The notes below the pieces were generated by a model. The model ran no database searches. It was not told the DNA's origin and saw nothing but the letters and a program-made list of their open reading frames with translations. The position numbers and the translations under genes were made by a program. A stretch of DNA of 64,000 nucleotides from the IMG/VR virus record IMGVR_UViG_3300037010_001838. One strand, given 5' to 3'. Origin of the DNA: a virus (Duplodnaviria; Caudoviricetes). Below are positions 27,290-64,000 of this stretch, in pieces. Position 1 is the first letter of the stretch. Each line of letters starts with the position of its first letter.

Positions 27290-27318
27290 TTGACTTTTAT
27301 AAATAAGTCATATATACT
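27290..27318 (+). promoter_or_regulatory. tRNA-operon promoter 1
   Basis: TTGACT-17-TATACT, identical 29 nt at 50045 and 63401; contains TATAAATA and TGACTT/AAGTCA inverted repeat. Confidence 0.9.
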
Positions 27319-27354
27319 TATAACACTGAATTAATTACTTAAAGGATTTACAAA

Positions 27355-27450
27355 ATGAACACAAACGGATTAGGTTATTGTCTATCACTCGGGTCTTTAT
27401 CCATATTGGATAAGAGCCAGGTCGCCGTTTGGGGAATTACCAAGATGTAA
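27355..27450 (+). CDS. leader (attenuator) peptide 1, MNTNGLGYCLSLGSLSILDKSQVAVWGITKM
   Basis: AAAGGA SD; 31 codons between promoter and terminator; codons 5-18 are only Gly/Leu/Tyr/Cys/Ser/Ile. Confidence 0.8.
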   Translation: MNTNGLGYCLSLGSLSILDKSQVAVWGITKM

Positions 27451-27469
27451 AGAGAAAAAATCCCAAAAG

Positions 27470-27500
27470 AAAGCCTGGCTCGAAAGACCCAGGCTTTTTT
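27470..27500 (+). terminator. attenuator terminator 1
   Basis: AAAGCCTGG...CCAGGCTTT plus T-tract; 5' arm also pairs with GAGCCAGGT (27414-27422). Confidence 0.9.
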
Positions 27501-27506
27501 GTTGTA

Positions 27507-27526
27507 AACTGTTATTTAAAAATTTG
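27507..27526 (+). promoter_or_regulatory. boxA-like antitermination site 1
   Basis: AACTGTTATTTAAAAATTTG, conserved at 50308 and 63748, resembles rrn boxA TGCTCTTTAACAATTT. Confidence 0.6.
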
Positions 27527-27536
27527 AAATATTTTG

Positions 27537-27655
27537 GGGCATGCGGCGAAGTTGGAGAGTCGCGGCGGACTGACTAGAGAGCATTGGTTTTCCAGTGTTC
27601 TCGACTAAATCCGTTCCCTCGTGGTGAGTAGGTTCGATTCCTACCATGCCCACCA
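27537..27655 (+). tRNA. tRNA-Tyr(GTA) with 33-nt insertion in the anticodon
   Basis: GGGCATG/CATGCCC-A-CCA; GCGGA-CTG|insert 27573-27605|TAAA-TCCGT; long variable arm; GGTTCGATTCC. Confidence 0.8.
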
Positions 27656-27661
27656 ATTTAT

Positions 27662-27747
27662 GCGCTAGTGCCGGAGTAGACGAACGGAACTGCCTGCAAA
27701 GCAGATGGTGAAAGCCCACGTGGGTGCAAATCCTACCTAGCGTTCCA
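27662..27747 (+). tRNA. tRNA-Cys(GCA), long variable arm
   Basis: CTGC-CTGCAAA-GCAG arm; U73; CCA. Confidence 0.85.
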
Positions 27748-27754
27748 AAATAAA

Positions 27755-27844
27755 GGGGAGTGAAATAAGGCTAGGTGGTCCTGGCGCAGGGTTGTAGCTC
27801 CTGTCCCTCGTGGCAAGAAGTTCGATTCTGTCCTCTCCCCACCA
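27755..27844 (+). tRNA. atypical tRNA, GTA anticodon (Tyr-like)
   Basis: CAGGG-TTGTAGC-TCCTG; GGGGAG/CTCCCC-A-CCA; weak T-stem. Confidence 0.5.
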
Positions 27845-27853
27845 AAATTTAAT

Positions 27854-27930
27854 ACCCTTCTACGCTAATTGGTAACGCGGCAACGCTTAGAACGTTGTGG
27901 TTCTCAGTTCGAATCTGAGGTTGGGTACCA
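27854..27930 (+). tRNA. tRNA-Leu(TAG), short variable arm
   Basis: CAACG-CTTAGAA-CGTTG; CTCAG-TTCGAAT-CTGAG; CCA; two acceptor mismatches. Confidence 0.75.
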
Positions 27931-28061
27931 AGTTTGTCCTGTTGTGTGTTGTTTGGAACAATCGCTTTGTTGGTGGTATCTGGCTATTCAAACGAACCAT
28001 AATTCGATACACAAGAAAACAGTTAGAACGTACATTTATAAAGATTAAAACATGATAAATT

Positions 28062-28144
28062 GCCCTGGTGACAAATGCAAATTGGTACAGCTACTGCGCT
28101 AAGAACGCAGGTTTTTACGGGTTCGACTCCCGTCTGGGGCACCA
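28062..28144 (+). tRNA. tRNA-Leu(AAG)
   Basis: CTGCG-CTAAGAA-CGCAG; GCCCTGG/CTGGGGC-A-CCA. Confidence 0.85.
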
Positions 28145-28152
28145 AAAATATT

Positions 28153-28248
28153 ACCGTATCATTCCAGTAGGTGCTGGTAAGAATCCATAAGAGTTGTACT
28201 TGGAGTCCAGGTGCAACACAGGCAGAGCGTGACTGCAATACGGTTCCA
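28153..28248 (+). ncRNA. tRNA-like RNA ending in TCCA
   Basis: Terminal 7-bp stem ACCGTAT/ATACGGT plus TCCA; internal hairpins; no canonical T-loop. Confidence 0.45.
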
Positions 28249-28257
28249 AAATTTAAT

Positions 28258-28330
28258 GCGGGTTGTCAAGTGGTGTACGTTTGGCCTTCCAAGCCGAAAG
28301 AGGTGAGTTCGAATCTCATAGCCCGCTCCA
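28258..28330 (+). tRNA. tRNA-Gly(TCC)
   Basis: TTGGC-CTTCCAA-GCCGA; GCGGGTT/AGCCCGC-T-CCA. Confidence 0.9.
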
Positions 28331-28339
28331 AAATATTAT

Positions 28340-28441
28340 GGCGCAGATAGGTGTAGTTGAAACAGCACTGTGGGAGATTCCTCGAGGCGTAGCTCCCATT
28401 CCTCTGGATAAGTGGGTTAAATTCCCATCCTGTGGCCACCA
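28340..28441 (+). tRNA. tRNA-like gene with enlarged 16-nt anticodon loop, isotype unclear
   Basis: GGGAG/CTCCC stem around ATTCCTCGAGGCGTAG; GTGGG-TTAAATT-CCCAT; ACCA. Confidence 0.5.
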
Positions 28442-28509
28442 AACACGTTTGTCTCATTAATCTATATGACAAGGTGAGCGAGGGTTTGAATCCCTCTTTG
28501 GATACTAGT

Positions 28510-28594
28510 CGGCAAGTGGCTTAGGTAAATTGGTACAGCCCCTGGATTTAAGTTCCAGTGCTCTTGGTTGGGTTCGAATCCCCCTTGCCGACCA
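28510..28594 (+). tRNA. tRNA-Leu(TAA), short variable arm
   Basis: CTGGA-TTTAAGT-TCCAG; CGGCAAG/CTTGCCG-A-CCA. Confidence 0.75.
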
Positions 28595-28600
28595 AATATT

Positions 28601-28691
28601 GGAGAGTAGCGTCCATGGTGGACAAACTGCCTAGAAAGCAGTCGCCGGCATCTAAGTAGAGCCGCTGGTTCGATTCCTGTACTCTCCGCCA
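28601..28691 (+). tRNA. tRNA-Ser(AGA)
   Basis: ACTGC-CTAGAAA-GCAGT; long variable arm; G73; CCA. Confidence 0.85.
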
Positions 28692-28696
28692 CATTT

Positions 28697-28780
28697 CCGC
28701 AGGTGGCTTAGGTAAATTGGTACAGCCCCTATCTTCAAACGGTAGTGCTTTTGTGGGTTCGAATCCCTCCCTGCGGACCA
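28697..28780 (+). tRNA. tRNA-Leu(CAA), short variable arm
   Basis: CTATC-TTCAAAC-GGTAG; paralogue of 28510; CCA. Confidence 0.75.
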
Positions 28781-28792
28781 GACAGTTAAATT

Positions 28793-28876
28793 GCCCCCGG
28801 TGACAAATGCAAATTGGTACAGCTACTGCGCTAAGAACACAGGTTTTTACGGGTTTGACTCCCGTCTGGGGCACCA
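28793..28876 (+). tRNA. tRNA-Leu(AAG), degenerate duplicate
   Basis: Near copy of 28062-28144 with anticodon-stem mismatch and T-loop TTTGACT. Confidence 0.6.
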
Positions 28877-28881
28877 AAATT

Positions 28882-28970
28882 ACGAGTGTGGTGTAATTAG
28901 GTAGATGTAACAGGCTTAAACCCTGCCTGCCTGCCGAAAGGTCGTACCGGTTCGAATCCGGTCACTCGGA
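28882..28970 (+). tRNA. tRNA-Leu(TAA), class II, no encoded CCA
   Basis: CAGG-CTTAAAC-CCTG; long variable arm; ACCGG-TTCGAAT-CCGGT. Confidence 0.8.
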
Positions 28971-29029
28971 CTTTTGTTGATATTTTCGTCATTTTAATAT
29001 ATCATTTAATATATGATGAGAGACTAAAA

Positions 29030-29533
29030 ATGAACAGACATTATCAGAATTATCTTTTTAAGAAGTATCCTGCTCTATATAAAGAACACACTCTTCCGAT
29101 GAGTGAAACTTGTATGTGTTGGGGGGTTACTTGTGGAGATGGTTGGTTTAATCTTATTAATCAATTGTCTGAATTTTTGTGCAGCGATTGGATCTATGAG
29201 AAATACACATACGATCGTATGGTGACTAACCTTGGTCAACTTTTGTATCCAGGTAGTCCTGAAAGTGATTTTAACCCTATTATCACAACTGAGTTGATTG
29301 CCGCAGTCAAAGTAAGGATGGATGATGCAGAACTTTCGATTCCTGTTGCTCGGCAAGTGAAAGAAAAATTTGGAACTCTTCGGTTTTATGTTTCTAACGC
29401 AACTGAAGAACAATATTCAGCAATTCAGTTTGCTGAATATCAAAGTAAAATGATTTGTGAAGTGTGTGGTGCACGAGGAACTGTGGGTGGCCGGGGTTGG
29501 ATTTCAACTCGGTGTATTAAACACAGAAAGTGA
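29030..29533 (+). CDS. conserved phage hypothetical protein
   Basis: CGDGWFNLI...QVKEKFGTLRFY...CEVCG motif. Confidence 0.8.
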   Translation: MNRHYQNYLFKKYPALYKEHTLPMSETCMCWGVTCGDGWFNLINQLSEFLCSDWIYEKYTYDRMVTNLGQLLYPGSPESDFNPIITTELIAAVKVRMDDAELSIPVARQVKEKFGTLRFYVSNATEEQYSAIQFAEYQSKMICEVCGARGTVGGRGWISTRCIKHRK

Positions 29534-29538
29534 TATAT

Positions 29539-29629
29539 GGAAGGTAGTGTCTATGGCAGACAAACTGTTTTGAAAGCAGTCGCCGGCATCTAAGTAGAGC
29601 CGCTGGTTCGATTCCTGTACCTTCCGCCA
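29539..29629 (+). tRNA. tRNA-Ser(TGA)
   Basis: ACTGT-TTTGAAA-GCAGT; variable and T arms identical to 28601; G73 CCA. Confidence 0.85.
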
Positions 29630-29648
29630 GTTTTAAAGTTTTAAATTT

Positions 29649-29733
29649 GTCTCGGTGCAGGGAATTGGTAGACTGAATTGTTTCAAAAACAATTGACCGA
29701 AAGGTGGGAGTTCGAGTCTCCCTCGAGACACCA
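29649..29733 (+). tRNA. tRNA-Leu(CAA)
   Basis: ATTGT-TTCAAAA-ACAAT; long variable arm; CCA. Confidence 0.9.
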
Positions 29734-29741
29734 AACAAATT

Positions 29742-29834
29742 GGTCCTGTAGTTTAAAGAAAACAAGATGATTTATAAACATCCAAGGTCCTAGATGAGGG
29801 CAAGTAGTGGGAGCGTTACCCACCAGGACTACCA
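29742..29834 (+). tRNA. atypical tRNA-Ile(TAT)
   Basis: GGTCCTG/CAGGACT-A-CCA; GATG-A-TTTATAA-A-CATC; long variable region; T-loop AGCGTTA. Confidence 0.55.
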
Positions 29835-29837
29835 AAT

Positions 29838-29960
29838 TGTTGTGTGAGGGGGATTGGTATACCCCGGCGGTGGAATCATAGTGGGGAGCTCTGTGAAAAC
29901 AGACTAAAATAGTAACCCTTCCAGTAGCTTGTGTAGGTTCGAGTCCTACCACAACAACCA
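29838..29960 (+). tRNA. tRNA-like gene with structured insertion in anticodon arm
   Basis: TGTTGTG/CACAACA-A-CCA; D-arm; GTAGG-TTCGAGT-CCTAC; about 43 nt between TGGAA/TTCCA. Confidence 0.55.
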
Positions 29961-30176
29961 ATTGTTGACTTTTACTCTCCATTAGTGTAAAGTATCTTTA
30001 CTTTAAATGTTTGTTGATAAGGTGAACTGTGTCGGAACGTGATTATAAAGAACTTCGAAAAATCGCAAACCAGTTTGTTGATTACAACCTAATACAGTGT
30101 TGCGCAGAACTTGCAGCTATAAGTAACAGGACAGGGGGGAAAACCCCGTTCTTTTGGACTTAAATTAAAAACAGGA

Positions 30177-30452: not shown

Positions 30453-30456
30453 TATT

Positions 30457-30708: not shown

Positions 30709-30709
30709 T

Positions 30710-33815: not shown

Positions 33816-33892
33816 GCGGGAGTAGCTCAGTTGGTTAGAGCGCAACTTTGCCAAAGTTGAGGTCGAGAGTTCAAGTCTCTTTTCCCGCTCCA
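33816..33892 (+). tRNA. tRNA-Gly(GCC)
   Basis: Canonical cloverleaf, CAACT-TTGCCAA-AGTTG, CCA; TATAAATA at 33799 upstream. Confidence 0.95.
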
Positions 33893-33939
33893 AAAATTCT
33901 TTCTTAATGGAGATAAACATTAAGTGGTGGGTTGACTTT

Positions 33940-33963
33940 AAACGGGCTTCGGTCCGTTTTTTG
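33940..33963 (+). terminator. rho-independent terminator
   Basis: AAACGGGC-TTCG-GTCCGTTT plus T-tract. Confidence 0.85.
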
Positions 33964-35273: not shown

Positions 35274-35364
35274 AGTCAGCGAACTCCTTGTTTATAGTAA
35301 ATAAATTCAATGAGAAACATTTGTTGACATTATTTAAAAGAACAAGTAATATTAGCAAATGATT

Positions 35365-35436
35365 GCTCAATTGGCTTAATGGTAAAGCAGGTGCTTCTAA
35401 AACACTTGACCGTCGGTTCGATTCCGACATTGGGCA
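35365..35436 (+). tRNA. amber suppressor tRNA (anticodon CTA)
   Basis: GCTCAAT/ATTGGGC-A; canonical D and T arms; GGTGC-TTCTAAA-ACACT puts CTA at 35397-35399. Confidence 0.75.
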
Positions 35437-35443
35437 CCGAGAA

Positions 35444-36179: not shown

Positions 36180-37056
36180 CAGAACGTTTCATCAGAAACA
36201 ATTTAAAAGATAAAGAATTACGCGCTTGTGCAAAGTAACCAACAGCGATGTTGTGAAAGCGGTAGGTCCTACAACTACCGCGCCCTGTAAGGGGTACAAA
36301 CAAGCAAGCCTGACCTACTCCGAAAGGAGCTGATTATCGCCAACGGTAGTCATATGAGGGAAGTTAGGGGTGTGGAAAGAACGAATGTTTACAAGCCTGC
36401 TCTGCAGGGAACTTGGGCATTTGGAGAGTAACGGGTTGTGCCGACCTCACGCCTACACAAACTAGCCATCTCAAAAGGTAAAGGGTAGTACAGTGGTCCG
36501 AACCCGCAAGTAAGGGCTGTTGTGCAAGTTGAGGGGGTTTTGGTACCTGTAATAGGGTGTCACGATTCCTGAAAACTGGTTGAGTAGTCGGCAGATGAAA
36601 AACATGAGGAGTGTGGTATTTTTATACTCAAAAGGTATGAAATCCACTGGAAACGCACTTCTTGGTAGGTTTAACAATGTTAGGGTTAACAGCCCATATA
36701 AATTTGGATTATATTACATAAAACGCAAAGACGTTTCCAGTGTAAAGTGAAAATGGCTTAATCCTTCAGCCGCAAGGTAATGAAGGCGTCCAAAACTCGC
36801 AAGGTCGAGGATGTTGAAAGAAAGTCGCACGCAGAGAGTTAGCGCTCTTGTACAGCTCGCAAGGTTGGCGGTAGACAGATAATCGAGTAGCTTTACATGT
36901 TGGTGGAAAAGCAACCACTTAAAAAATGCAGTCATGTTGATAGACATAGTTGTGCGAAAGCTGATTATGTGGATAAGAGAAGAACTCTAGCTGTAGCAGG
37001 TGATGAGATAATGTCTCGAAGGTATCAATAGTATAGGTTTAATCTCAACCTTATAC
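36180..37056 (+). ncRNA. large structured RNA, GOLLD-like
   Basis: About 880 nt non-coding, many GNRA-capped hairpins (CTCC-GAAA-GGAG, GCC-GCAA-GGT, CTC-GCAA, TGC-GAAA-GC); terminal hairpin with TAATCTC loop; next to phage tRNAs. Confidence 0.65.
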
Positions 37057-50044: not shown

Positions 50045-50073
50045 TTGACTTTTATAAATAAGTCATATATACT
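50045..50073 (+). promoter_or_regulatory. tRNA-operon promoter 2
   Basis: Identical to 27290-27318 and 63401-63429. Confidence 0.9.
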
Positions 50074-50127
50074 TGTATCAACAGTTGAGCAAAGTGCTCA
50101 ATAAATTTAATTAATGGAGATTTGCAA

Positions 50128-50226
50128 ATGATTTTTACGACTTTCTTTACAGCGTTTACAACCCCTGAGGCATGGCATGCCCCAGAGATGGCTGTGTGCG
50201 CTCTTGAGGAAGGTTGGAAAAACTAA
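50128..50226 (+). CDS. leader (attenuator) peptide 2, MIFTTFFTAFTTPEAWHAPEMAVCALEEGWKN
   Basis: GGAG SD; 32 codons; codons 3-22 are only Phe/Thr/Ala/Pro/Glu/Trp/His/Met. Confidence 0.8.
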   Translation: MIFTTFFTAFTTPEAWHAPEMAVCALEEGWKN

Positions 50227-50244: not shown

Positions 50245-50276
50245 AAAAAGGGCGCTCCGAAAAAGCGCCCTTTTTT
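50245..50276 (+). terminator. attenuator terminator 2
   Basis: AAAAAGGGCGCT/AGCGCCCTTTTT; 5' arm also pairs with GCGCTCTT (50198-50205). Confidence 0.9.
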
Positions 50277-50307: not shown

Positions 50308-50327
50308 AACTGTTCATTAACAATTTG
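50308..50327 (+). promoter_or_regulatory. boxA-like site 2
   Basis: AACTGTTCATTAACAATTTG. Confidence 0.65.
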
Positions 50328-50338: not shown

Positions 50339-50412
50339 CAGGGTGTGGGAAAGTTTGGTAATCCGCGAGTTTTGGAAACTCGAGACCACTGGTTCAAATC
50401 CAGTCATCCTGA
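50339..50412 (+). tRNA. tRNA-Pro(TGG)
   Basis: CAGGGTG/CATCCTG-A; CGAGT-TTTGGAA-ACTCG. Confidence 0.9.
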
Positions 50413-50440
50413 CAAACGAATTCTAAACAAAAAATATTAT

Positions 50441-50516
50441 CTCTGTGTGGTGCAATCTGGTAGCATAGCTGGTCCGGAGCCAGGCGATCAAGGTTCAAAT
50501 CCTTGCATGGAGACCA
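50441..50516 (+). tRNA. tRNA-Pro(CGG)
   Basis: CTGG-TCCGGAG-CCAG (C33 atypical); CCA. Confidence 0.7.
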
Positions 50517-50523
50517 AACGAAT

Positions 50524-50602
50524 GGGGTTAGGGACTGCTTGGCGTGGTCGCCGCACTTGCAATACGGAAAACAGCTCGGTTCAAATCCGAGTAGCTCCAC
50601 CA
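50524..50602 (+). tRNA. tRNA-Ala(TGC)
   Basis: GGGGTTA/TAGCTCC with G3-U70; CTTGCAA loop; CCA. Confidence 0.9.
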
Positions 50603-50605
50603 AAT

Positions 50606-50653
50606 GGGTGATTCGGGTGGCTAAGGCGGGTTCGATTCCCGTATGCTCCACCA
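50606..50653 (+). tRNA. truncated tRNA (T-arm plus CCA only)
   Basis: GCGGG-TTCGATT-CCCGT-ATGCTCC-ACCA in 48 nt. Confidence 0.45.
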
Positions 50654-50685
50654 AAAGAACTTTTAAATGTTGAAGTTCTTTTAAT

Positions 50686-50744
50686 GGGGGCATGATGGTT
50701 GCTGCCGACGGGCAAGACGAGTTCGATTCTCGTATCGTCCACCA
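50686..50744 (+). tRNA. truncated tRNA lacking D-arm
   Basis: ACGAG-TTCGATT-CTCGT-ATCGTCC-ACCA in 59 nt. Confidence 0.45.
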
Positions 50745-50793
50745 AAGTTTGTAAACCAAAGTTTGTAATTAGAGTGTGCTAAAACTAAAAAAT

Positions 50794-50880
50794 GCACGGG
50801 AAGTCAGATGGATTGGACACCACCCTTTCAAGGTGGCAGGTGAAAACCGTTTGCGGGTTCGAGTCCCGTTCCGTGCTCCA
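50794..50880 (+). tRNA. tRNA-Glu(TTC) with long variable arm
   Basis: CCACC-CTTTCAA-GGTGG; 16-nt variable region; CCA. Confidence 0.85.
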
Positions 50881-50900
50881 ATTTTCACAAGTAAAACAAC

Positions 50901-50972
50901 TTTCAGTATAGTGTAATGGTTAGCACGACCCCGTTGGTGGGTTAGAGTGTGGTTCGATTCCCACCTGAATAT
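50901..50972 (+). pseudogene. degenerate tRNA
   Basis: D-arm GTGT/GCAC and T-arm GTGG-TTCGATT-CCCAC present; anticodon loop and acceptor degraded. Confidence 0.4.
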
Positions 50973-51042
50973 GACAACTAGAGAGCAAGCTACTCTTTCA
51001 TTGGTGGTCTGATCAACTAAGATGACAAGTGAAACGATTAAC

Positions 51043-51120
51043 GTAACTGTAGCTCCAATCACGCAGAGCATTTGTCTAAAAAGCAAAGTGTTGCGGGTCC
51101 GAATCCTACTGGTTACACCA
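51043..51120 (+). tRNA. tRNA-Phe(AAA)
   Basis: GTAACTG/TGGTTAC-A-CCA; GCTC/GAGC; TTTGT-CTAAAAA-GCAAA. Confidence 0.75.
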
Positions 51121-51149
51121 AACGAATTTACTTACAAATTCGTTATAAA

Positions 51150-51225
51150 GCCGCTATAGCAAAGATGGTCTATGCGACGGACTGAAAATCCGAGGATCTC
51201 CGATCGTTACGGAGTGGCGGCGCCA
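51150..51225 (+). tRNA. tRNA-Phe(GAA)
   Basis: CGGA-CTGAAAA-TCCG; atypical T-loop ATCGTTA; CCA. Confidence 0.8.
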
Positions 51226-51230
51226 AACAA

Positions 51231-51356
51231 CGCTCCAACAAGTGCTGTGGGTAAGCCTATCGTTAAAAAACGAGATTGAAATCTCGGCTGAGGTTTCATT
51301 GAGTTTTACAAAACGGTGAAAATTCTAGACAGGGTTCGATTCCCTACGAGTGACCA
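51231..51356 (+). ncRNA. 126-nt tRNA-like RNA ending in ACCA
   Basis: CGCTC/GAGTG terminal stem, AGGG-TTCGATT-CCCT, internal CGAGAT/ATCTCG hairpin. Confidence 0.45.
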
Positions 51357-51490
51357 ACAACGGACACTAGACATTTGACATAGTGTCCACTGAATTAAAT
51401 CTTGGTTTTCTAGTATACTAAGAGTATAATTAACATTATATTTGTAATTTGCGTTTTCGAATAAATATACCACTTGTTGGAAAAATTAAC

Positions 51491-52093
51491 ATGATCAAAA
51501 ATTTTATGTTTTTAATGATGCTGGTTGTTTCAACACATGTTTACGCTCTTAGTTATTCTATTGTAAATTGGAGACTGATATTGTCGGGTGATATCACGAA
51601 AAAAGATTTAACCGAAATGCCAAAATATCTGACAAATCAAATAGATACAGTTGTGTTTGATAGTGTAAATGGAGGAGATGCTGGAACGACTTTAGAGTTG
51701 CTTCCATTATTTGAAGCAAGACCGAGAGTTCATATCGTTTCTGGGTTTTGTGAAAGTTCCTGTGTAATTATGTTTTTAGCCGGAACAGATAGAATATCTT
51801 ATGGTATAATTGGACTCCATTCTGTATATTCGTATGACACAAACAAGATAAACCCCCATCTAAGCCATCTCTTTAATAAGTATGTTGAAAAAAGACTTGG
51901 TTCAAAGTATGACAAGCAGTTATTTTCTTTTGTTTTTAATAAAATGATAGACCACAATGAATTGTTGATTTTTAGCAAAAATGATTTTGGAAAATTGTGT
52001 GGTTCTGATTCTTGTGGGACACCAATCGCAAGAACTGCTGAAGAACTGGGATTGACAACAGATAAACATTTTATGTTAACATCCAACTGGTAA
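51491..52093 (+). CDS. secreted protein with ClpP/crotonase-like motifs
   Basis: Signal peptide; FDSVNGGD, CESSCVIMFLAG, IGLHS. Confidence 0.6.
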   Translation: MIKNFMFLMMLVVSTHVYALSYSIVNWRLILSGDITKKDLTEMPKYLTNQIDTVVFDSVNGGDAGTTLELLPLFEARPRVHIVSGFCESSCVIMFLAGTDRISYGIIGLHSVYSYDTNKINPHLSHLFNKYVEKRLGSKYDKQLFSFVFNKMIDHNELLIFSKNDFGKLCGSDSCGTPIARTAEELGLTTDKHFMLTSNW

Positions 52094-52098
52094 CAAAC

Positions 52099-52172
52099 GC
52101 CGCCTTCGTATAATGGTATTACGCAACCTTTGTAACGTTGATATGTCAGTTCGATTCTGACAGGTGGCTCCA
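52099..52172 (+). tRNA. tRNA-Thr(TGT)
   Basis: TTTGTAA loop; GCCGCCT/AGGTGGC-T-CCA. Confidence 0.9.
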
Positions 52173-52266
52173 AATTGATTGTAAAATTTGACTTGCAAGC
52201 AACCGAGTTGGAATAGCTGGAGTGACTCTGGTAGACGGTTCAATTCCGTATCAATCAATTAACAAT

Positions 52267-52342
52267 GGTGACCATAGTGTAAAGGTAGCATTTCTCGCTG
52301 TGAACGAGGAGGAGTGGGTTCAATTTCCCACTGGTCACCCCA
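52267..52342 (+). tRNA. tRNA-His(GTG)
   Basis: 8-bp acceptor with G-1, CTGTGAA loop, CCA. Confidence 0.9.
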
Positions 52343-52386
52343 ATTCAATCGTTGACTTTTTATAATAAATCTGTAAAATTAGTTTT

Positions 52387-52442
52387 AAGACACTAACAGC
52401 AACTCAAAAAACTTTCTATGCTAAGGAAACTAAACGTGTCTT
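52387..52442 (+). ncRNA. AAGACAC-TAACAGCAA...GTGTCTT motif, copy 2
   Basis: Same ends as 38051-38112 with a different loop. Confidence 0.55.
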
Positions 52443-52567
52443 GTTCACAAAAACAGTAACTAAAACAAGGAGGGTAGGGAAATGCTAAACGCAAACAAAA
52501 ATGGAAGAAACACTTCGGTCTAAGACAAGTAGGAATAACTACCGACAACAAACCAGTTATCAGTGGT

Positions 52568-52804
52568 TTGGATGTATTCAAACACACAGAAACTCTTGGT
52601 ATCCCTCTCGAATTTATAATTGACCATATTAAAGAAAACAACTGTGTTGTAAATTGGTTGGAGTTTTTAACTGTGTCGATTGAGCACGGGTGGAACATAA
52701 AATCAACAATAACAAAAATTGAATATGCTCTCGTTGATGTATACGATAAGGTGTATGCAAACGAAGTAATTTCAAGGTTAAAACAACTAATCGCTTTCAA
52801 TTAG
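52568..52804 (+). CDS. hypothetical protein (F...T.G.PL motif, AlaRS-like fragment)
   Basis: FKHTETLGIPLEFI; start uncertain, frame opens near 52485. Confidence 0.5.
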   Translation: MDVFKHTETLGIPLEFIIDHIKENNCVVNWLEFLTVSIEHGWNIKSTITKIEYALVDVYDKVYANEVISRLKQLIAFN

Positions 52805-52899
52805 TAAGGAACATTAAATTCAAATTTCCCCTAAACTGGTTTGATAAATATAAAATGGTTTGATAAATAGTGCTACAATATCGACCCAAAGGAAATCAA

Positions 52900-53946
52900 A
52901 TGTCAAAAGTTCTATTTATATTGAAGCGAAAAGAAAATTACGGTGTGGCTAATTTTCATGAACCAAGAGGATTGTCAACGGGTTTACTAAATTCAGCGTC
53001 ATATGTAAGTGATATGTTAAACAGTATTGGAATTTCATCAGAGATTGAAATTGCTGTCGATAATAATTGCATTGACAGGATTGTAACACAACACAAACCT
53101 TCCGTTGTGATTATAGAAGCTTTGTGGGTTGTTCCAGAAAAATTTGAAATTCTTCAAAAACTTCATCCTAGTATTCGTTGGATTGTAAGACTTCACAGTG
53201 AAGTTCCGTTTATGGCTCAAGAAGGAATTGCATTCGCTTGGATTACTGACTATTTAAAATATAAAAACGTTTACGTTGGTGTCAATTCACTAAGAATGGT
53301 TAAAAGTTTAATAAACCTTCATTTGAATAGTGAGGGGGCTGAAGATAAGTTTTTGTTTATGCCAAACTATTATCCAATTTTAAACACAAAAACAAAAGTT
53401 CCTGATTATAAATCAGAGGAACTCAACATTGGATGCTTTGGGGCTGTTAGACCATTGAAAAATCATATACACCAAGCACTAGCAGCAATTCACTTTGCTG
53501 ACAAAGAAAACAAAAAACTTAATTTTCACATTAACGCTAACAGACTTGAAATGAAAGGGGAACCAATTCTCCACAATTTACGAAGAATGTTTGACCGTCA
53601 GAAACAACATGGTCATAAATTAGTCGAACACGCATGGCAACCAAGAGAAGAATTTTTGGAATTGTGCGGGCAAGTGGATGTTGGAATGCAGGTGTCTTTT
53701 AGTGAAACGTTTAATATTGTTGGGGCGGACCTTATAAATCAAGGGATTCCAGTTGTTTCTTCAAGTGAAATTCCATGGGCAGTAGGATTTTTTGGTGCAA
53801 GTCCAGTAGACCAAGATTCCATCGAACGTGGGTTAAGTAGAGCATATCATTGTCCGAGAACGAATAGATATCTCAACTTCTTGAAATTACATTCTTATTC
53901 AGAAAATAGTTTAAGTGTGTGGAAAAAATTATTTTCTAATGTGTAA
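52900..53946 (+). CDS. glycosyltransferase (GT-B, family 4-like)
   Basis: GCFGAVRPLKN, SFSETFNIVGAD, GIPVVSS. Confidence 0.8.
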   Translation: MSKVLFILKRKENYGVANFHEPRGLSTGLLNSASYVSDMLNSIGISSEIEIAVDNNCIDRIVTQHKPSVVIIEALWVVPEKFEILQKLHPSIRWIVRLHSEVPFMAQEGIAFAWITDYLKYKNVYVGVNSLRMVKSLINLHLNSEGAEDKFLFMPNYYPILNTKTKVPDYKSEELNIGCFGAVRPLKNHIHQALAAIHFADKENKKLNFHINANRLEMKGEPILHNLRRMFDRQKQHGHKLVEHAWQPREEFLELCGQVDVGMQVSFSETFNIVGADLINQGIPVVSSSEIPWAVGFFGASPVDQDSIERGLSRAYHCPRTNRYLNFLKLHSYSENSLSVWKKLFSNV

Positions 53947-53980
53947 TTAATTGAATTAACCACGAGGAGATTAAAGAACT

Positions 53981-54349
53981 ATGAAGATTGAAGAGTTAAT
54001 GGAAAGTTTGGTTGTTTGGAAACCAATTGACGGTTGGTCAAACTATGAAGTTTCTAACACAGGACAAGTTCGTTCGACTAAAACAAATAAAGTTTTGGCC
54101 CAAGAAGAACACTACGGTCACGACAAAAAATCTCCGTATATGAGAGTTCACTTGTCACAAAATGGAGTCAAAAAACACCTTAGAGTGAACAGGTTAGTTG
54201 CATATGCTTTTATTGGACCACCACCAGATCGTAATATGCACGTAGACCATAAAGATAATAACACCAGAAATAACAAATCAACAAATCTTCAGTGGCTTAC
54301 TCCTACTGAAAATTTAAAAAAACGTCTAGCACATAAGTCAGAACATTAA
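53981..54349 (+). CDS. NUMOD4-HNH homing endonuclease
   Basis: WKPIDGWSNYEVSNTGQVRS; HVDHKDNNTRNNKSTNLQWLT..EN. Confidence 0.9.
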   Translation: MKIEELMESLVVWKPIDGWSNYEVSNTGQVRSTKTNKVLAQEEHYGHDKKSPYMRVHLSQNGVKKHLRVNRLVAYAFIGPPPDRNMHVDHKDNNTRNNKSTNLQWLTPTENLKKRLAHKSEH

Positions 54350-54375
54350 TTACAAAAACTGTTTCTATTTCAAAA

Positions 54376-54450
54376 GCCACATAAGCAGAACTGGTGATGC
54401 GCCTGTTTCGTAATCAGGAAATACGTTGGGTTCAAGTCCCCGATGTGGCA
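54376..54450 (+). tRNA. tRNA-Thr(CGT)
   Basis: CCTG-T-TTCGTAA-T-CAGG; GCCACAT/ATGTGGC. Confidence 0.85.
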
Positions 54451-54459
54451 CCTACACAA

Positions 54460-54760
54460 AAATAACTAAACCTTCTATATCTATAAATTTATCGATAATA
54501 GCGTCTTCAATTAAAGATTTGTTTCCAGAAAAGGTGTCTCATCAAATAGTTGGTCTTGAACTTATTGGTGATGAATTAATCGCAACGCTTGAAACTTTGG
54601 ATACACCAGAAGGAATTGAAGTCAAAACACTGATTGAGAATGTCCCCACTGAATGTCGACCAACCGGAGTTGGGTATATCGTTGATGACCCAACAGGACA
54701 ATCATCTGGAATAATTAAAGAAGAATTTAGGATTTACGAATGTTGCGATAGTTCCAAAAG
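54460..54760 (+). pseudogene. prohead protease (T4 gp21-like) fragment
   Basis: KVSHQIVGLELIGDELIATLETLDTPEG..VK.LI...RPTGVG resembles gp21 core; no clear start. Confidence 0.45.
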
Positions 54761-54766
54761 ATTAAT

Positions 54767-54840
54767 AGACCACAAGTGTTACGGTAGCACAGCGGCCTCC
54801 AAAGCCGCGGGTCGGGGTTCGACTCCCTGGTGGTCTGCCA
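54767..54840 (+). tRNA. tRNA-Trp(CCA)
   Basis: GCGGC-CTCCAAA-GCCGC; G73 CCA. Confidence 0.92.
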
Positions 54841-54918
54841 AATGGATGAAAATGTATAGATTTGAAGTGTACGTGATAGATCGAGAAGGTTTTGGTCCAC
54901 ATGGTGCAAGATAATATT

Positions 54919-54995
54919 GGTGATGTGGGTGAAAAGGTAATACCGCCTTGCTCATAACGAGGAACATTCCAGTTCGATTCTGGACATCACCACCA
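54919..54995 (+). tRNA. tRNA-Met(CAT), elongator (or Ile2)
   Basis: CCTTG-CTCATAA-CGAGG; paired 1-72; CCA. Confidence 0.85.
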
Positions 54996-55028
54996 AGACA
55001 TTAAAACGCAAAAAACGTGTCTTGTTGC

Positions 55029-55102
55029 GCCCTTATAGTATATTGGTATTACTCTTCTCTGGTATAGAAGGAAATGCAGTTCAATTCTGCATGAGGGCAC
55101 CA
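55029..55102 (+). tRNA. tRNA-Thr(GGT)
   Basis: CTTCT-CTGGTAT-AGAAG; CCA. Confidence 0.88.
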
Positions 55103-55129
55103 TAAATAATAAAAACTGGAGAATCTAAC

Positions 55130-55366
55130 ATGAAAATTCGTGATTTCTTAAATGAAACTGTTTACAATTTAAATAAAACTGATGATATAGATAAAGGAAA
55201 TATTGATCCAGAGAAATATTATGTGTTTATCAGAACTGTTGACCCAACACTTGTCGGACCTTTTAACACATCAAGTGAAGCACATAAATACATGAATGGA
55301 GAGTATGTTACTGATCGTGTAGAAAAGATCGTTGTAAGTGGAACTGAAGCAAAAAGATTATTTTAA
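55130..55366 (+). CDS. hypothetical protein with MKIRDFLNE N-terminus
   Basis: GGAG SD, ATAAATA upstream. Confidence 0.65.
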   Translation: MKIRDFLNETVYNLNKTDDIDKGNIDPEKYYVFIRTVDPTLVGPFNTSSEAHKYMNGEYVTDRVEKIVVSGTEAKRLF

Positions 55367-55395
55367 ACGAATCCAACTTGTTTGTTGATATTAGT

Positions 55396-55510
55396 GTTGT
55401 TGTATATCAGTTGGTTAGAGATAACGTCTGCTCGAGGGTGTAGCCCCCGGTAAAGGACCGCAACGCTGCAGATAAAACGTTCGCCGATGGTTCGAGTCCA
55501 TCCAACAACA
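55396..55510 (+). tRNA. tRNA with about 42-nt insertion in the anticodon loop (CTG|TAAA gives GTA; isotype uncertain)
   Basis: GTTGTTG/CAACAAC-A; AACGT/ACGTT stem; GATGG-TTCGAGT-CCATC; insert 55431-55472. Confidence 0.7.
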
Positions 55511-55519
55511 CTAGATTTT

Positions 55520-55593
55520 GGGGCTGTAGTATAAAGGGATTACGGAAGCTTTGCAAGCTTTTTATCGGGGTTCGATTCCCCGCAGTTCCACCA
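55520..55593 (+). tRNA. tRNA-Ala(TGC)
   Basis: GGGGCTG/CAGTTCC-A-CCA with G3-U70; TTTGCAA loop. Confidence 0.9.
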
Positions 55594-57331: not shown

Positions 57332-58294
57332 GTGTCTCTTTCAAATGTTAAGATTTTCGCTGGAAATTCAAATATTGAATTCGCCACAAAGATAGCAAGT
57401 AGGATGGGGTTAGCACTCGGTAAGGCTAAAGTAAGTAAGTTCAAAGACGGTGAAACATCTGTTGAAATTGAAGAGTCGGTTAGAGGAAGTGTTGTATTTG
57501 TTATTCAGTCAACGTGCAATCCTGTTAACGACAATTTAATGGAATTATTGACAATGACAGACGCATTAAGAAGAGCTGCTGCAAAACGCATTATTGCAGT
57601 TGTTCCTTATTATGGATATTCCAGACAAGATAGGCGTCCAGGATTTAGCCGTGGACCAATTACTTCCCGTCTTGTAGCAGATGTGATTCAAGCAGCTGGT
57701 ATTGACCATTTAGTATCGGTTGATATTCATTCTCTTCAACAACAAGGGTTTTTTACGATTCCCTTTACTAACATTTCCGCTTCCGTTGAATTCATTAAAG
57801 ATATCAGAATGATGTATCGTAAAGAAAAAGAAGAAAAAACACTTATGGTTGTTTCTCCTGATATCGGTGGAGTATTACGTTCTAGACAAATTGCAGAACA
57901 GTTAAACGGTGACACTCAATTAGCTATTGTGGATAAACGTCGCCCACGAGCTGGTGAATCAGAAGTTATGAACATCATCGGTGACGTAGAGGGAAAAGTT
58001 TGTATTATGGTTGATGATATTGTAGATACAGCTGGAACTTTATGTAAGGCTGCGAAATCTTTAAAGGACCATGGTGCTCTTAAAGTTGTTGCTTATGCCA
58101 CTCACCCTGTATTATCAGATAATGCTTACGAGAATTTAACTCATTCAGTGTTAGACGAATTAGTAGTAACAGATACAATTCCACTAATAGGCAATGTTCC
58201 AAATAACATCAGACAATTATCAATTAGTGATTTGGTTGCAGAAACTATACGAAGAATGAGGTCCAAGCAGTCTGTTAGTCAAATATATGTTTAA
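57332..58294 (+). CDS. prs: ribose-phosphate pyrophosphokinase
   Basis: FKDGETSVEI, YGYSRQDRR, DIHS, VSPDIGGV, VDDIVDTAGTL, THPVLS. Confidence 0.96.
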   Translation: MSLSNVKIFAGNSNIEFATKIASRMGLALGKAKVSKFKDGETSVEIEESVRGSVVFVIQSTCNPVNDNLMELLTMTDALRRAAAKRIIAVVPYYGYSRQDRRPGFSRGPITSRLVADVIQAAGIDHLVSVDIHSLQQQGFFTIPFTNISASVEFIKDIRMMYRKEKEEKTLMVVSPDIGGVLRSRQIAEQLNGDTQLAIVDKRRPRAGESEVMNIIGDVEGKVCIMVDDIVDTAGTLCKAAKSLKDHGALKVVAYATHPVLSDNAYENLTHSVLDELVVTDTIPLIGNVPNNIRQLSISDLVAETIRRMRSKQSVSQIYV

Positions 58295-59869: not shown

Positions 59870-59880
59870 ATACTGCGGTA

Positions 59881-61608: not shown

Positions 61609-61800
61609 GTTTTCTCCTTAATTAAGAAAATGTATCATCACAAAATCTGATGATGAGAAGGGGCTTGTTGGAGCCCTCTGTTGAAGTATATGGTAATTAT
61701 ATTTTATATTTTATATTTATACAACTAATAAATATGTTGACTTTCATTGGGGAATGTGTATGATTCACTCACTCGAATTAAGATTTAATAAGGAAAATGT

Positions 61801-62106
61801 ATGACGACAAACACAGAAGTATATGATGAAGCTGAATTGGCTGAATTTACAGAACGAGCAGAACGCGAGTCTGGTGTAAATGAAATTCGATCAAAGGTGT
61901 TCCAGGGAACGAAAGAAGAAGCAGCAAAATTGGCCGACCCAAACAAATTATGTCAAGACTGTGAATTACCAATTCCTGTTGAACGACAGTTGGCATATCC
62001 AACAGCAAAATTTTGCATTGATTGCCAAGAGTGGCACGATGCAACAGAAGAACGCAAACGTCGTATGACTGGAACTGGATTTAATGTTTTGGGAGTATTC
62101 GGATGA
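61801..62106 (+). CDS. TraR/DksA C4-type zinc finger protein
   Basis: CQDC..PIPVERQLAYP.AKFCIDCQ; N-terminal DEAELA. Confidence 0.85.
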   Translation: MTTNTEVYDEAELAEFTERAERESGVNEIRSKVFQGTKEEAAKLADPNKLCQDCELPIPVERQLAYPTAKFCIDCQEWHDATEERKRRMTGTGFNVLGVFG

Positions 62107-62366
62107 GTTGTCATTGGAATCATCGATTGGTTCAGTGTGAAAGTGGTGGTGAAGTTTACTTTGAAATTCGTGAAGTATACTACAACAATGCTGGAAATGT
62201 TACAGCAATGACCGAAGACGCTATCGGAGTTGGAGGATACAGTGTTGAAGAAATTCTTGTGACTCTAGAACGAATGAAAGTTGCGTGTTCTAAAGAAGTC
62301 ATTATTGAAAAAGATTTTGTATACGATAAGTGGGATGATGAATTTGAACACGGAGATGATGATTAA
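62103..62366 (+). CDS. conserved phage hypothetical protein
   Basis: WNHRLV...EIREVYY motif. Confidence 0.7.
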   Translation: MSCHWNHRLVQCESGGEVYFEIREVYYNNAGNVTAMTEDAIGVGGYSVEEILVTLERMKVACSKEVIIEKDFVYDKWDDEFEHGDDD

Positions 62367-62426
62367 GACAGCAACGTATCCGACTCAAACTCCTGACACA
62401 ATAAAGCATGTTCTGCTATTAATGAG

Positions 62427-62849
62427 TTGAAAGTTAAACTAAACAATGAGGGAGGACCAGATGAGTTTTGGAACGAATTTTTAGTATCTCTGTCAACAGC
62501 ATCCATGTTTGTTGCTAACAATCTTGAACGGAGATATATGGAGATAACTGAAACTGAACGTCAGATTTTATTGAGAGGTCTTCTCTATTCCATAAAAATG
62601 AGTAATAATTTGATTAAAACTCATAAAGACATAGCGCTGTGGATTGCGTTAGAAGATTTTATCGGAGATAAAGATTTCTCTTTCCGAATAGCTCTAACAG
62701 TGCCGAATGCTTGTGAATATTCAAGAGACGCATCAGGAATTCTCCATTTATATTCTGAAGATAGTGCGCACCGTTTGTTAACAAGGAAAAGAATGTCTTT
62801 TTATGTTCAAGGACGAAGAAGTGAATTTCTTAAAAGGGATGTAATATGA
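62427..62849 (+). CDS. hypothetical protein
   Basis: 140-aa ORF. Confidence 0.55.
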   Translation: MKVKLNNEGGPDEFWNEFLVSLSTASMFVANNLERRYMEITETERQILLRGLLYSIKMSNNLIKTHKDIALWIALEDFIGDKDFSFRIALTVPNACEYSRDASGILHLYSEDSAHRLLTRKRMSFYVQGRRSEFLKRDVI

Positions 62850-62993
62850 GCTGCCCAATGTGCGACGATGGTCATTTTCCAAACAAAGTAATGATTCCTG
62901 TAAAAGACAAAAAGACAGGCGAGTGAATTTGGTTGAGTGTGAAATCAGAAACTTATTCTAAATTAGAAAAATCAATTCAAGAAATATATAAAA

Positions 62994-63296
62994 ATGGCAG
63001 AAAATGATTTATGTCCATTGTGTGGAAGAACACTGGGTGACATTAATGTGGATTTCCACCATTTAATTCCAAAGACGTTTAAAGGGAAAGATGGAGTTAT
63101 GCTCCACCGTGTTTGCCATAGATATATCCACGCCACATTCAGTGAACGTGAATTGGCTAATTATTATCACACGATTGAACGTTTATTGGAGTATGAAAAC
63201 ATCCAAAAGTTTGTTAAGTGGATTACAAAAAAACCACCTGAATATTATGTAAGTGCTAATGAAAGCATTGAACGAAAAAAGAAAAGAAAAAGATAA
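62994..63296 (+). CDS. HNH endonuclease
   Basis: CPLCGR...HHLIPK...LHRVCHRYIH. Confidence 0.85.
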   Translation: MAENDLCPLCGRTLGDINVDFHHLIPKTFKGKDGVMLHRVCHRYIHATFSERELANYYHTIERLLEYENIQKFVKWITKKPPEYYVSANESIERKKKRKR

Positions 63297-63400
63297 ATCG
63301 TTAGTTTAAAAATACTATATCTTTTAAGGAGACATAAGATGTCAACGACGTATATGATGCTCCAAGCACCAGATGTGTTCTTGAGATTGATAAATAAATG

Positions 63401-63429
63401 TTGACTTTTATAAATAAGTCATATATACT
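63401..63429 (+). promoter_or_regulatory. tRNA-operon promoter 3
   Basis: Identical 29 nt to 27290 and 50045; further shares TGTATCAACAGTTGAGCAAAGTGCT with copy 2. Confidence 0.9.
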
Positions 63430-63587
63430 TGTATCAACAGTTGAGCAAAGTGCTTAACTAAATAGTTAGGTGTTGAAAGCTAGGACGTCCCGGTACTAAC
63501 AAAACATAGAAATATGTGGGTGCGTAGAAGCGTATATTAAGCAGACGATAAAGTAGTAAACACCATTTAATTTAAGGAGCTTTACAA

Positions 63588-63683
63588 ATGTTCGTAACCA
63601 GACAACAACAGAGTATTAGTATCATTCGCCGACGCCAAGTGCGTCGCGACAGTGATATTATTATGTCTGGAGGCTGGGTATAG
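63588..63683 (+). CDS. leader (attenuator) peptide 3, MFVTRQQQSISIIRRRQVRRDSDIIMSGGWV
   Basis: AAGGAG SD; 31 codons; codons 5-25 are only Arg/Gln/Ser/Ile/Val/Asp. Confidence 0.8.
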   Translation: MFVTRQQQSISIIRRRQVRRDSDIIMSGGWV

Positions 63684-63705
63684 CATAAAGCTAAATTCTT
63701 AAAAA

Positions 63706-63744
63706 GAAAAACCCAGTTTCCAAAAGAGACTGGGTTTTTCGTTT
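63706..63744 (+). terminator. attenuator terminator 3
   Basis: GAAAAACCCAGTTTC/GAGACTGGGTTTTTC; 5' arm also pairs with TGGAGGCTGGGT (63668-63679). Confidence 0.9.
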
Positions 63745-63747
63745 TAC

Positions 63748-63767
63748 AACTGTTCATTAAAAATTTG
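63748..63767 (+). promoter_or_regulatory. boxA-like site 3
   Basis: AACTGTTCATTAAAAATTTG. Confidence 0.65.
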
Positions 63768-63776
63768 AAAATATAT

Positions 63777-63849
63777 TGGGAAGAAGCCGATTGGTCGAGG
63801 CGGTGCGTTCTGAGCGCATTCGTATAGAGTTCGATTCTCTACTTCCTAG
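63777..63849 (+). tRNA. tRNA-Gln(CTG)
   Basis: TGGGAAG/CTTCCTA-G; GTGCG-TTCTGAG-CGCAT. Confidence 0.85.
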
Positions 63850-63857
63850 CCTTTAAT

Positions 63858-63931
63858 TGGCCCGTGGTGTAGCGGTAGCACAGAAGATTTTGAATCTTCT
63901 AGTCCAAGTTCAACTCTTGGTGGGCTTGCCA
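63858..63931 (+). tRNA. tRNA-Gln(TTG)
   Basis: GAAGA-TTTTGAA-TCTTC; G73 CCA. Confidence 0.88.
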
Positions 63932-63944
63932 TTTGAAGTATAAT

Positions 63945-64000
63945 ACCGTCGTAGCTCTCGGGGAGAGCATCTCACTGTCTATGAGATTCAGGTGGGTTCG
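63945..64000 (+). tRNA. tRNA-Asp(GTC), truncated by window end
   Basis: GCTC/GAGC D-arm; TCTCA-CTGTCTA-TGAGA; start of T-arm GTGGGTTCG. Confidence 0.8.

Follow-up and report, generated by a model that had tools for sequence, protein, structure and literature searches.

When, and in response to what, does a phage transcribe its own tRNA genes? These genes are usually viewed as constitutive helpers for codon usage or as spares against tRNA-cleaving defenses, and to our knowledge the control of their expression is essentially unknown. Some viruses encode their own tRNAs that counter tRNA cleavage (PMC12409363). We addressed this question in a 64,000-nt stretch of IMGVR_UViG_3300037010_001838 (hereafter, the window), which carries three tRNA arrays, each headed by a promoter, a short open reading frame (ORF), and an intrinsic terminator. 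An earlier analysis of this DNA (hereafter, the original prediction) had proposed that the arrays are controlled by leader-peptide attenuation, with leader codons that match the tRNAs encoded downstream. We found that the codon/anticodon match is real and lies far beyond chance, and that each unit is probably a ribosome-mediated transcription attenuator ahead of a tRNA operon, a reading to which we assign a probability of roughly 0.8. The evidence for an RNA switch presented throughout is in silico.

Leader codons match the tRNA genes downstream

The three units share the same anatomy. A 30-nt string, TTGACT...TATACTT, occurs exactly three times in the window, always on the plus strand, where no copy would be expected by chance; the original prediction had placed the same identical repeats at these sites, with a length of 29 nt. 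The string reads as a putative near-consensus sigma70 promoter (TTGACT, a 17-nt spacer, and TATACT). Behind each copy, the elements follow in one order: a Shine–Dalgarno (SD) sequence, an ATG-initiated ORF, a spacer, a hairpin with a T-run, a boxA-like motif, and the first tRNA gene. As anticipated for the leaders (31–32 codons behind an SD), the ORFs comprise 31, 32, and 31 codons, with the SD (AAGGA, GGAG, or AAGGAG) located 8–12 nt upstream of the ATG. A spacer of 16–23 nt separates each leader ORF from its terminator hairpin, and all three terminators are strong (−17 to −18 kcal/mol). The degenerate boxA motif GYTCWTTAAMAATT, when at most one mismatch was allowed, matched the window exactly three times. 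Each match separates a terminator from the first tRNA gene, which begins 12–13 nt past the motif. The conserved boxA-like site described earlier is thus present before each array and at those positions only, and the same motif also matches the boxA in the leader of E. coli rrnH, taken as a control sequence. By appearance, the promoter, SD, and boxA are all of an enterobacterial type. The 5′ untranslated region of unit 3 (63431–63587) spans 158 nt, versus 36–54 nt in units 1 and 2 and in the orthologue of the related contig G002; it contains the 5′ hairpin shared among units and an 8-codon mini-ORF (63515–63541, MWVRRSVY) that consists partly of operon-3 amino acids.

We took a census of the tRNA genes by combining ARAGORN, run with the intron option on and off, with Rfam. 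Most of array 3 lies past the end of the window, and its content was taken from G001, a near-identical IMG/VR contig of 178.8 kb that has 57% of the window's sampled 31-letter words in common and whose leader 3 differs from that of the window by one synonymous change. Beyond the window, array 3 of G001 continues with Asp, Gln, Arg(TCG), Val(TAC), Ile(GAT), Asp, Arg(ACG), Ser(GCT), Arg(TCT), and Arg(CCT), bringing operon 3 to three Gln, two Asp, and four Arg tRNAs together with Val(TAC), Ile(GAT), and Ser(GCT). In operon 1, a tRNA-Gly(GCC) and a terminator-like hairpin located downstream of the array probably mark the end of the operon.

Comparison of the leaders with this census revealed long runs of consecutive codons confined to the amino acids of the leader's own array (hereafter, sensor runs), as had been claimed for the early and middle codons of each leader. 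These runs extend over 14, 20, and 21 codons in leaders 1, 2, and 3. G001 carries a fourth unit just past the window end. Its promoter copy differs at a single position, its leader has 33 codons and the core NNVNVNNK, and its terminator is followed by Val(GAC), Asn, and three Lys tRNAs. The proposal of three units therefore held for all three in the window, and the count itself rose to four. This fourth unit was invisible when the original prediction was made, so its leader amounted to an independent prediction of the tRNAs behind it, and they bore it out; its sensor run covers eight codons (codons 11–18). In a six-frame scan of the window, comprising 128,000 codons, no other run for these four amino-acid sets exceeded 12, 9, 12, and 7 codons, respectively, one Ser/Leu low-complexity stretch excepted. 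A matrix of the four leaders against the four operons placed cognate pairs far above non-cognate pairs at both the amino-acid and the codon level, and the four operons jointly cover all 20 amino acids. With wobble rules applied strictly, 33 of the 36 distinct anticodons are matched by one or more cognate codons in the leader of the same operon; the unsampled ones (CGG, CCT, and CTT) all belong to C34 isoacceptors, whose codons are also read by a U34 partner.

The match extends to amino acids whose codons are split between operons. Leader 1 uses TCA, TCT, and TCC for Ser and ATA for Ile, with Ser(TGA), Ser(AGA), and Ile(TAT) downstream, whereas leader 3 uses AGT and ATT/ATC, with Ser(GCT) and Ile(GAT) downstream. 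The partition by codon box that had been proposed thus holds, with the caveat that two of the tRNAs involved were called with low confidence. The tRNA-Ile(TAT) gene (29742–29834) scored 29.3 bits against an Rfam cut-off of 29 bits and appeared only in the permissive "evalue" scan and at the low threshold of ARAGORN, and tRNA-Ser(GCT) was likewise found at the low ARAGORN threshold only in G001, but at the default threshold in G002.

Coordinates of the units are listed in Table 1. Many of the phage tRNA genes are long (84–119 nt) and carry inserts, such as the 33-nt insert of the Tyr gene, that lie within the anticodon loop, close to it, or in other arms. Examples lie at 27537–27655, 27662–27747, 50794–50880, and 55396–55511 of the window and at 6483–6568 and 6746–6829 of locus L007, and several insert-bearing genes were detected only under intron-aware or low-threshold settings. 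Protein-coding ORFs with no Pfam match are interspersed within the arrays (29030–29533, 51449–52093, and 52870–53946), and relatives of a 358-aa array ORF (39–54% identity) occur in 55 IMG/VR contigs, which reach 385 kb, and frequently lie beside tRNA genes. Between the operons, we observed a tRNA with the amber-reading CTA anticodon (35365–35438, plus strand), which ARAGORN labels "Pyl" and which scores 63.9 bits with the Rfam tRNA model, with a promoter-like site at 35324. Reassignment of TAG was considered as an account of this tRNA and of the TAG stop of leader 3, and was rejected, as ORF statistics gave no sign of TAG recoding in the window. Downstream of the CTA-anticodon tRNA, on the same strand as the tRNAs, lies a full-length GOLLD RNA (RF02032, 198.8 bits, cut-off 150; 36606–37051). 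The window also encodes a 752-aa IMP dehydrogenase/GMP reductase-like protein (22540–24798, minus strand) split by an intein with a LAGLIDADG-type endonuclease signature, for which the intein and endonuclease Pfam matches are weak, at or below cut-offs, as well as a ribose-phosphate pyrophosphokinase (57332–58294) and a DUF2828/DUF7788 protein (38130–39632).

Table 1. Positions of the regulatory elements and tRNA genes of the three units in the 64,000-nt window.
Feature	Position	Strand	Description
Promoter, unit 1	27290..27319	+	TTGACT, 17 nt, TATACT; 30 nt identical across the three units
Leader ORF 1	27355..27450	+	31 codons; SD AAGGA at 27342-27346; sensor run codons 5-18 (27367-27408), only G, L, Y, C, S, I
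Antiterminator 5′ strand, unit 1 (predicted)	27413..27423	+	Within the ORF; duplex with the terminator 5′ arm (27472-27481), -17.5 kcal/mol, z -3.4 vs codon shuffles
Intrinsic terminator, unit 1	27467..27500	+	Hairpin and T-run
boxA-like site, unit 1	27511..27524	+	
tRNA array 1	27537..29834	+	Tyr(GTA, 33-nt insert), Cys, Leu(TAG), Gly(TCC), Ser(AGA), 84-nt gene called Lys(CTT), Leu(TAA), Ser(TGA), Leu(CAA), Ile(TAT, weak call)
tRNA-Gly(GCC) and terminator-like hairpin	33816..33959	+	Reads the GGT codon of leader 1; hairpin at 33940-33959
Promoter, unit 2	50045..50074	+	
5′-proximal hairpin	50084..50102	+	Common to units 2 and 3 and to the units of relative G008
Leader ORF 2	50128..50226	+	32 codons; SD GGAG; sensor run codons 3-22 (50134-50193), only F, T, A, P, E, W, H, M
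Antiterminator 5′ strand, unit 2 (predicted)	50197..50206	+	
Intrinsic terminator, unit 2	50245..50276	+	
boxA-like site, unit 2	50312..50325	+	
tRNA array 2	50339..55593	+	Pro x2, Ala, Glu, Phe(AAA), Phe(GAA), Thr(TGT), His, Thr(CGT), Trp, Met, Thr(GGT), doubtful Ser(CGA), Ala; small ORFs in between
Promoter, unit 3	63401..63430	+	
Leader ORF 3	63588..63683	+	31 codons; SD AAGGAG; stop TAG; sensor run codons 5-25 (63600-63662), only R, Q, S, I, V, D
Antiterminator 5′ strand, unit 3 (predicted)	63669..63680	+	Adjoins the stop codon; duplex with the terminator 5′ arm (63707-63718)
Intrinsic terminator, unit 3	63707..63739	+	
boxA-like site, unit 3	63752..63765	+	
tRNA array 3, start	63777..64000	+	Gln(CTG), Gln(TTG), beginning of Asp

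Leaders follow their arrays in related phages

As the original prediction had suggested, we turned to related phages. Contigs with the same promoter type were obtained by pattern scans of IMG/VR and include G002 (56 kb) and G008 (257 kb). G002 carries diverged orthologues of units 1, 2, and 3, in which the frame, length, and amino-acid classes of the leaders are kept together with the terminator and boxA, and the leader frame stays open in G001, G002, and G008 despite DNA divergence. In G008, the 20 amino acids are divided in another way, over three units: unit A holds G, C, Y, K, L, and S; unit B holds H, P, W, A, F, E, and T; and unit C holds V, I, Q, D, M, N, and R. Before the DNA of the unit C array was fetched, its content was predicted from the leader as T, Q, I, N, R, M, V, and D; the actual array encodes Val, two Ile, Gln, two Asp, Met, Asn, and Arg, with only the predicted Thr missing. 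The Lys, Met, and Asn tRNAs thus reside in other operons in G008 than in the window lineage, and the leaders follow the tRNAs. Leader A of G008 likewise uses both TCN and AGT Ser codons, and array A contains both Ser(TGA) and Ser(GCT). At the junction between the attenuator and the array of unit 1 in G002 (reverse complement of 1–30000, 29015–29950, locus L017), we also observed an ORF of ~420 codons whose motifs are rich in Cys and His and may be of the HNH type; it lies between the terminator and the boxA/tRNA array and looks like a mobile-gene insertion.

The association was quantified by randomly reassigning leaders to arrays across ten units. The true pairing gave 188 matched leader residues and a summed run length of 128, values that were reached by only 1–3 of 200,000 permutations. 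The reassignments that reached them were swaps among orthologues, one of which scored slightly above the true pairing (189 and 134). These results indicate that leaders track their arrays across related phages.

A second class of units was identified in other phages by searching for only a T-run and the boxA motif and filtering for a tRNA within 250 nt. In this class (loci L125, L129, L141, L147, L154, L166, and L187 on IMG/VR contigs), a promoter, a leader of 32–42 codons, a terminator, and boxA precede a single large tRNA array, in which Gln usually comes first. All six of six such leaders contain all 20 amino acids, which occurs in at most about 1% of null windows. At another locus, L146, a leader rich in Ala, Pro, Leu, Gly, and Trp stands ahead of Trp, Pro, Pro, Ala, and Ala tRNAs.

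This distribution bears on whether the ORFs are sensors at all. Strong promoters followed by leaky terminators could act as insulators around ORFs that are not translated as sensors, with the match arising by coincidence or from sequence that the ORFs have in common with the tRNA genes. In favor of such an explanation, translation of the leaders is a prediction from sequence, and promoter-like and terminator-like sites are frequent in this AT-rich DNA; a sigma70 promoter scan of the arrays performed at chance level and is hence uninformative on internal promoters. It would nevertheless leave unexplained run lengths that are unique among 128,000 codons, the conservation of frame, SD, and length despite nucleotide divergence, a leader composition that follows tRNAs moved between operons, and the presence of all 20 amino acids in leaders of independent phages. 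We consider it very unlikely, and the least probable of the alternatives weighed here.

Co-varying alternative pairings and the predicted RNA switch

We then analyzed terminators and candidate antiterminators in a set of 11 units from five contigs. Hairpins with T-runs, with energies of −13 to −19 kcal/mol, are present in 11 of 11 units, and in 10 of 11 a segment late in the ORF resembles the 3′ arm of the terminator and pairs with its 5′ arm. In the nine analyzable units, the duplex between the ORF and the 5′ arm has an energy of −11 to −19 kcal/mol, corresponding to z-scores of −1.9 to −4.7 relative to codon-shuffled ORFs. Terminator stems differ among orthologues, and the ORF segments track them: three type-2 units have GGGCGCU, GGGCAC, and GGCUUCC, and the type-3 units have CCCAG versus CCCCGG, the ORF segment co-varying with the stem in each case. 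In an 11 × 11 matrix of ORFs against 5′ arms, cognate duplexes averaged −12.9 kcal/mol and non-cognate duplexes −8.4 kcal/mol, the unit's own ORF ranked 1–3 of 11 for every terminator arm, and the observed total was reached by none of 100,000 permutations. The complementarity between the 5′ arm of the terminator and a late segment of the ORF, which the original prediction had noted in the window, is therefore maintained by co-variation.

Folds of the nascent transcript, in which a 30-nt ribosome footprint was masked at each codon, supported an antiterminator whose formation depends on ribosome position, in line with the alternative structures that had been envisaged. With the ribosome anywhere in the sensor run, the predicted antiterminator stays intact, and masking starts within 1–2 codons of the end of the run. 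A footprint just past the run abolishes the antiterminator in unit 3 of the window (W3), unit 3 of G002 (G2_3), and the fourth unit (W4); in W3 and G2_3, a ribosome on any of the last six codons or the stop codon does so. These folds imply that the sensor run is exactly the zone in which a stalled ribosome would induce read-through. In unit 3, the antiterminator strand adjoins the stop codon, so that it would be masked by a terminating ribosome. Taken together, the geometry of classical ribosome-mediated attenuation is supported, with the units behaving as expected in every sequence-level comparison that could be made.

The same folds speak to control of the opposite sign, in which translation of the leader would be needed for read-through, with the ribosome pushing the polymerase or excluding Rho, such that the array is on when decoding works and off when it fails. 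Snapshot folds of units W1 (window unit 1) and W4 keep part of the antiterminator with the ribosome at the stop codon, and leader 3 ends in TAG in a genome that encodes a CTA-anticodon tRNA, so that suppression would carry ribosomes into the terminator. The stop codons, however, lie 16–39 nt before the 5′ arm of the terminator, leaving a terminating ribosome short of the hairpin, and the antiterminator of W3 and G2_3 is lost when the ribosome occupies the last codons. Such feed-forward logic also gives no reason for a leader to sample its own operon's codons. We give this version little credence and retain attenuation by ribosome stalling as the preferred reading.

Proposed mechanism, triggers, and comparison with known systems

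On the basis of the above, we infer the following course of events during infection. Host RNA polymerase would start at the near-consensus sigma70 promoter and make a short leader mRNA, which a ribosome would translate, its central codons sampling one by one the codons read by the downstream tRNAs. If decoding is fast, the ribosome would reach the stop codon and sit on or between the antiterminator strands; the terminator would then form and transcription would end before the tRNAs. If any sampled codon is slow, whether the aminoacyl-tRNA is scarce, cleaved, or uncharged, the ribosome would stall upstream, the late-ORF segment would pair with the 5′ arm of the terminator, and the polymerase would read through. 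It would then cross boxA, probably recruiting Nus antitermination factors as in rRNA operons, and transcribe the untranslated array. As the tRNA products would restore decoding of the leader, the arrangement would constitute a negative-feedback homeostat of decoding capacity with four channels.

What the leaders report is a separate matter. The same hardware could respond to amino-acid supply, to tRNA charging, or to general translation stress, raising all tRNA output upon starvation or global slowing. Classical attenuators indeed answer to the charged fraction of tRNA and not to gene dosage, as established for trp and his, and any stall in the run frees the antiterminator in our folds. Extra tRNA, however, does not relieve amino-acid starvation, which would render such a response futile, and both the sampling at the level of isoacceptors (33/36) and the division of Ser and Ile by codon box between operons fit the sensing of individual tRNAs better than that of amino acids. 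We regard a signal of this kind as unlikely.

For the attenuators as we read them, candidate triggers are decay of host tRNAs, demand from rare codons, starvation, and tRNA-cleaving defense; the inducible counter-defense against anticodon nucleases put forward in the original prediction is thus one possibility among several. As a tentative and, in our view, still doubtful extension, the units may be codon-resolved sensors of the infected cell's tRNA pool that make tRNA supply inducible. After nuclease cleavage, or after decay of host tRNAs following shut-off, only the operon holding the replacements would turn on, and it would turn off again once decoding recovers. This would amount to an autonomous, multiplexed counter-defense or homeostasis circuit, possibly widespread in giant phages, including the variants whose leaders contain all 20 amino acids.

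Several observations weigh against the attenuation reading or its generality. In about half of the units, the antiterminator strand of the ORF lies 13–35 nt before the stop codon, so any block by a terminating ribosome must there be steric or kinetic and not direct masking. Snapshot folds predict the antiterminator even without a ribosome in most units, such that untranslated leaders may read through, unlike in trp; minimum-energy folds of W1, W2, and W3 contain an upstream 1:2 protector or pause hairpin, and most ribosome-free snapshot folds still form the antiterminator. Flanking leader codons encode non-cognate amino acids, from which cross-talk is expected, and the switch would respond to amino-acid starvation in addition to tRNA loss. 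Several of the tRNA genes were called weakly or carry inserts, and the unit of contig G010 shows a weak leader–array match. No clean units were found in the complete, more distant genomes G003 (368 kb), G004 (385 kb), and G007 (181 kb), the only candidate from an automatic unit finder applied to 55 related loci and these three complete genomes being a doubtful 51-codon ORF in G004; the system is thus not universal in the clade. The cultured phage PA5oct has no leader ORF or terminator upstream of its first tRNA cluster, and in cultured phage CBB, the tRNAs are by annotation scattered among small genes. Among 50,697 cultured phage records, we found no DNA or protein relative, close or distant, except for tRNA-only matches. 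The runs listed as holding DNA of this phage are metagenomes from microbial mats, sediments, and vents, with no RNA run among them, and a promoter-pattern scan of metagenomes returned 0 matches.

If correct, these units would represent the first case found in which transcription of tRNAs is gated by the decoding speed of the matching codons, isoacceptor by isoacceptor, and would provide a testable model for when giant phages deploy their tRNAs. They would also be natural, compact, and modular biosensors of decoding capacity for chosen codons. The signature itself, a leader spelling the array followed by a terminator and boxA, could serve to locate tRNA operons and their boundaries in the genomes of uncultured phages.

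Finally, we compared the units with known regulatory systems. As in the enterobacterial leaders (trpL, hisL, leuL, thrL, and pheL, and those of ilvGMEDA and ilvBN), a leader ORF rich in the sensed codons is combined with a mutually exclusive antiterminator and intrinsic terminator, the choice between which would depend on ribosome position, and the ilv leaders are likewise multivalent, with more than one amino acid sensed by each. The enterobacterial leaders, however, regulate biosynthetic enzymes and repeat one codon, whereas the phage units would regulate tRNAs, and their leaders sample 3 to 8 amino acids (20 in the second class) with approximately one codon per isoacceptor. The phage units further differ in having boxA after the terminator, in being phage-borne, and in occurring as four repeats with an identical promoter. 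The Rfam leader families (Thr, Trp, His, Leu, and Phe) gave no match at the gathering threshold in scans of the window and of the leaders. Each of the three leaders gave a sub-threshold Thr_leader match on the correct strand (25.6, 16.9, and 27.1 bits, cut-off 55), and the best Trp_leader match scored 18.6 bits (cut-off 41); the Thr_leader resemblance is one of architecture and not of family membership.

The pheST attenuator of E. coli, with its leader pheM, responds to the decoding of cognate codons and offers a parallel in which leader-peptide attenuation governs a gene of the translation apparatus. Its target is an aminoacyl-tRNA synthetase and its signal a single amino acid, whereas the phage units would control tRNA genes through multiplexed codons. 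T-box riboswitches are likewise terminator/antiterminator leaders that read tRNA status in a codon-specific manner; they differ in binding uncharged tRNA directly, without translation, one tRNA each, and in controlling synthetase, biosynthesis, or transport genes, and the T-box covariance model had no match in scans of the whole window or of the leaders. Like the rrn operons with their boxA/Nus antitermination, the phage operons have a boxA close to the E. coli rrnH form just upstream of a long untranslated RNA. Here, however, boxA follows the attenuator, so that only polymerases past the checkpoint would be modified, with Nus binding predicted. In the literature, we found no description of attenuator-controlled or leader-gated tRNA genes, with the proviso that most subscription journals lay outside our coverage and that such an absence is no proof. 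The mechanism is of a known kind; what is new is its target, the tRNA genes, together with the multiplexing of approximately one codon per isoacceptor, the placement of boxA after the checkpoint, and the division of the 20 amino acids over repeated units.

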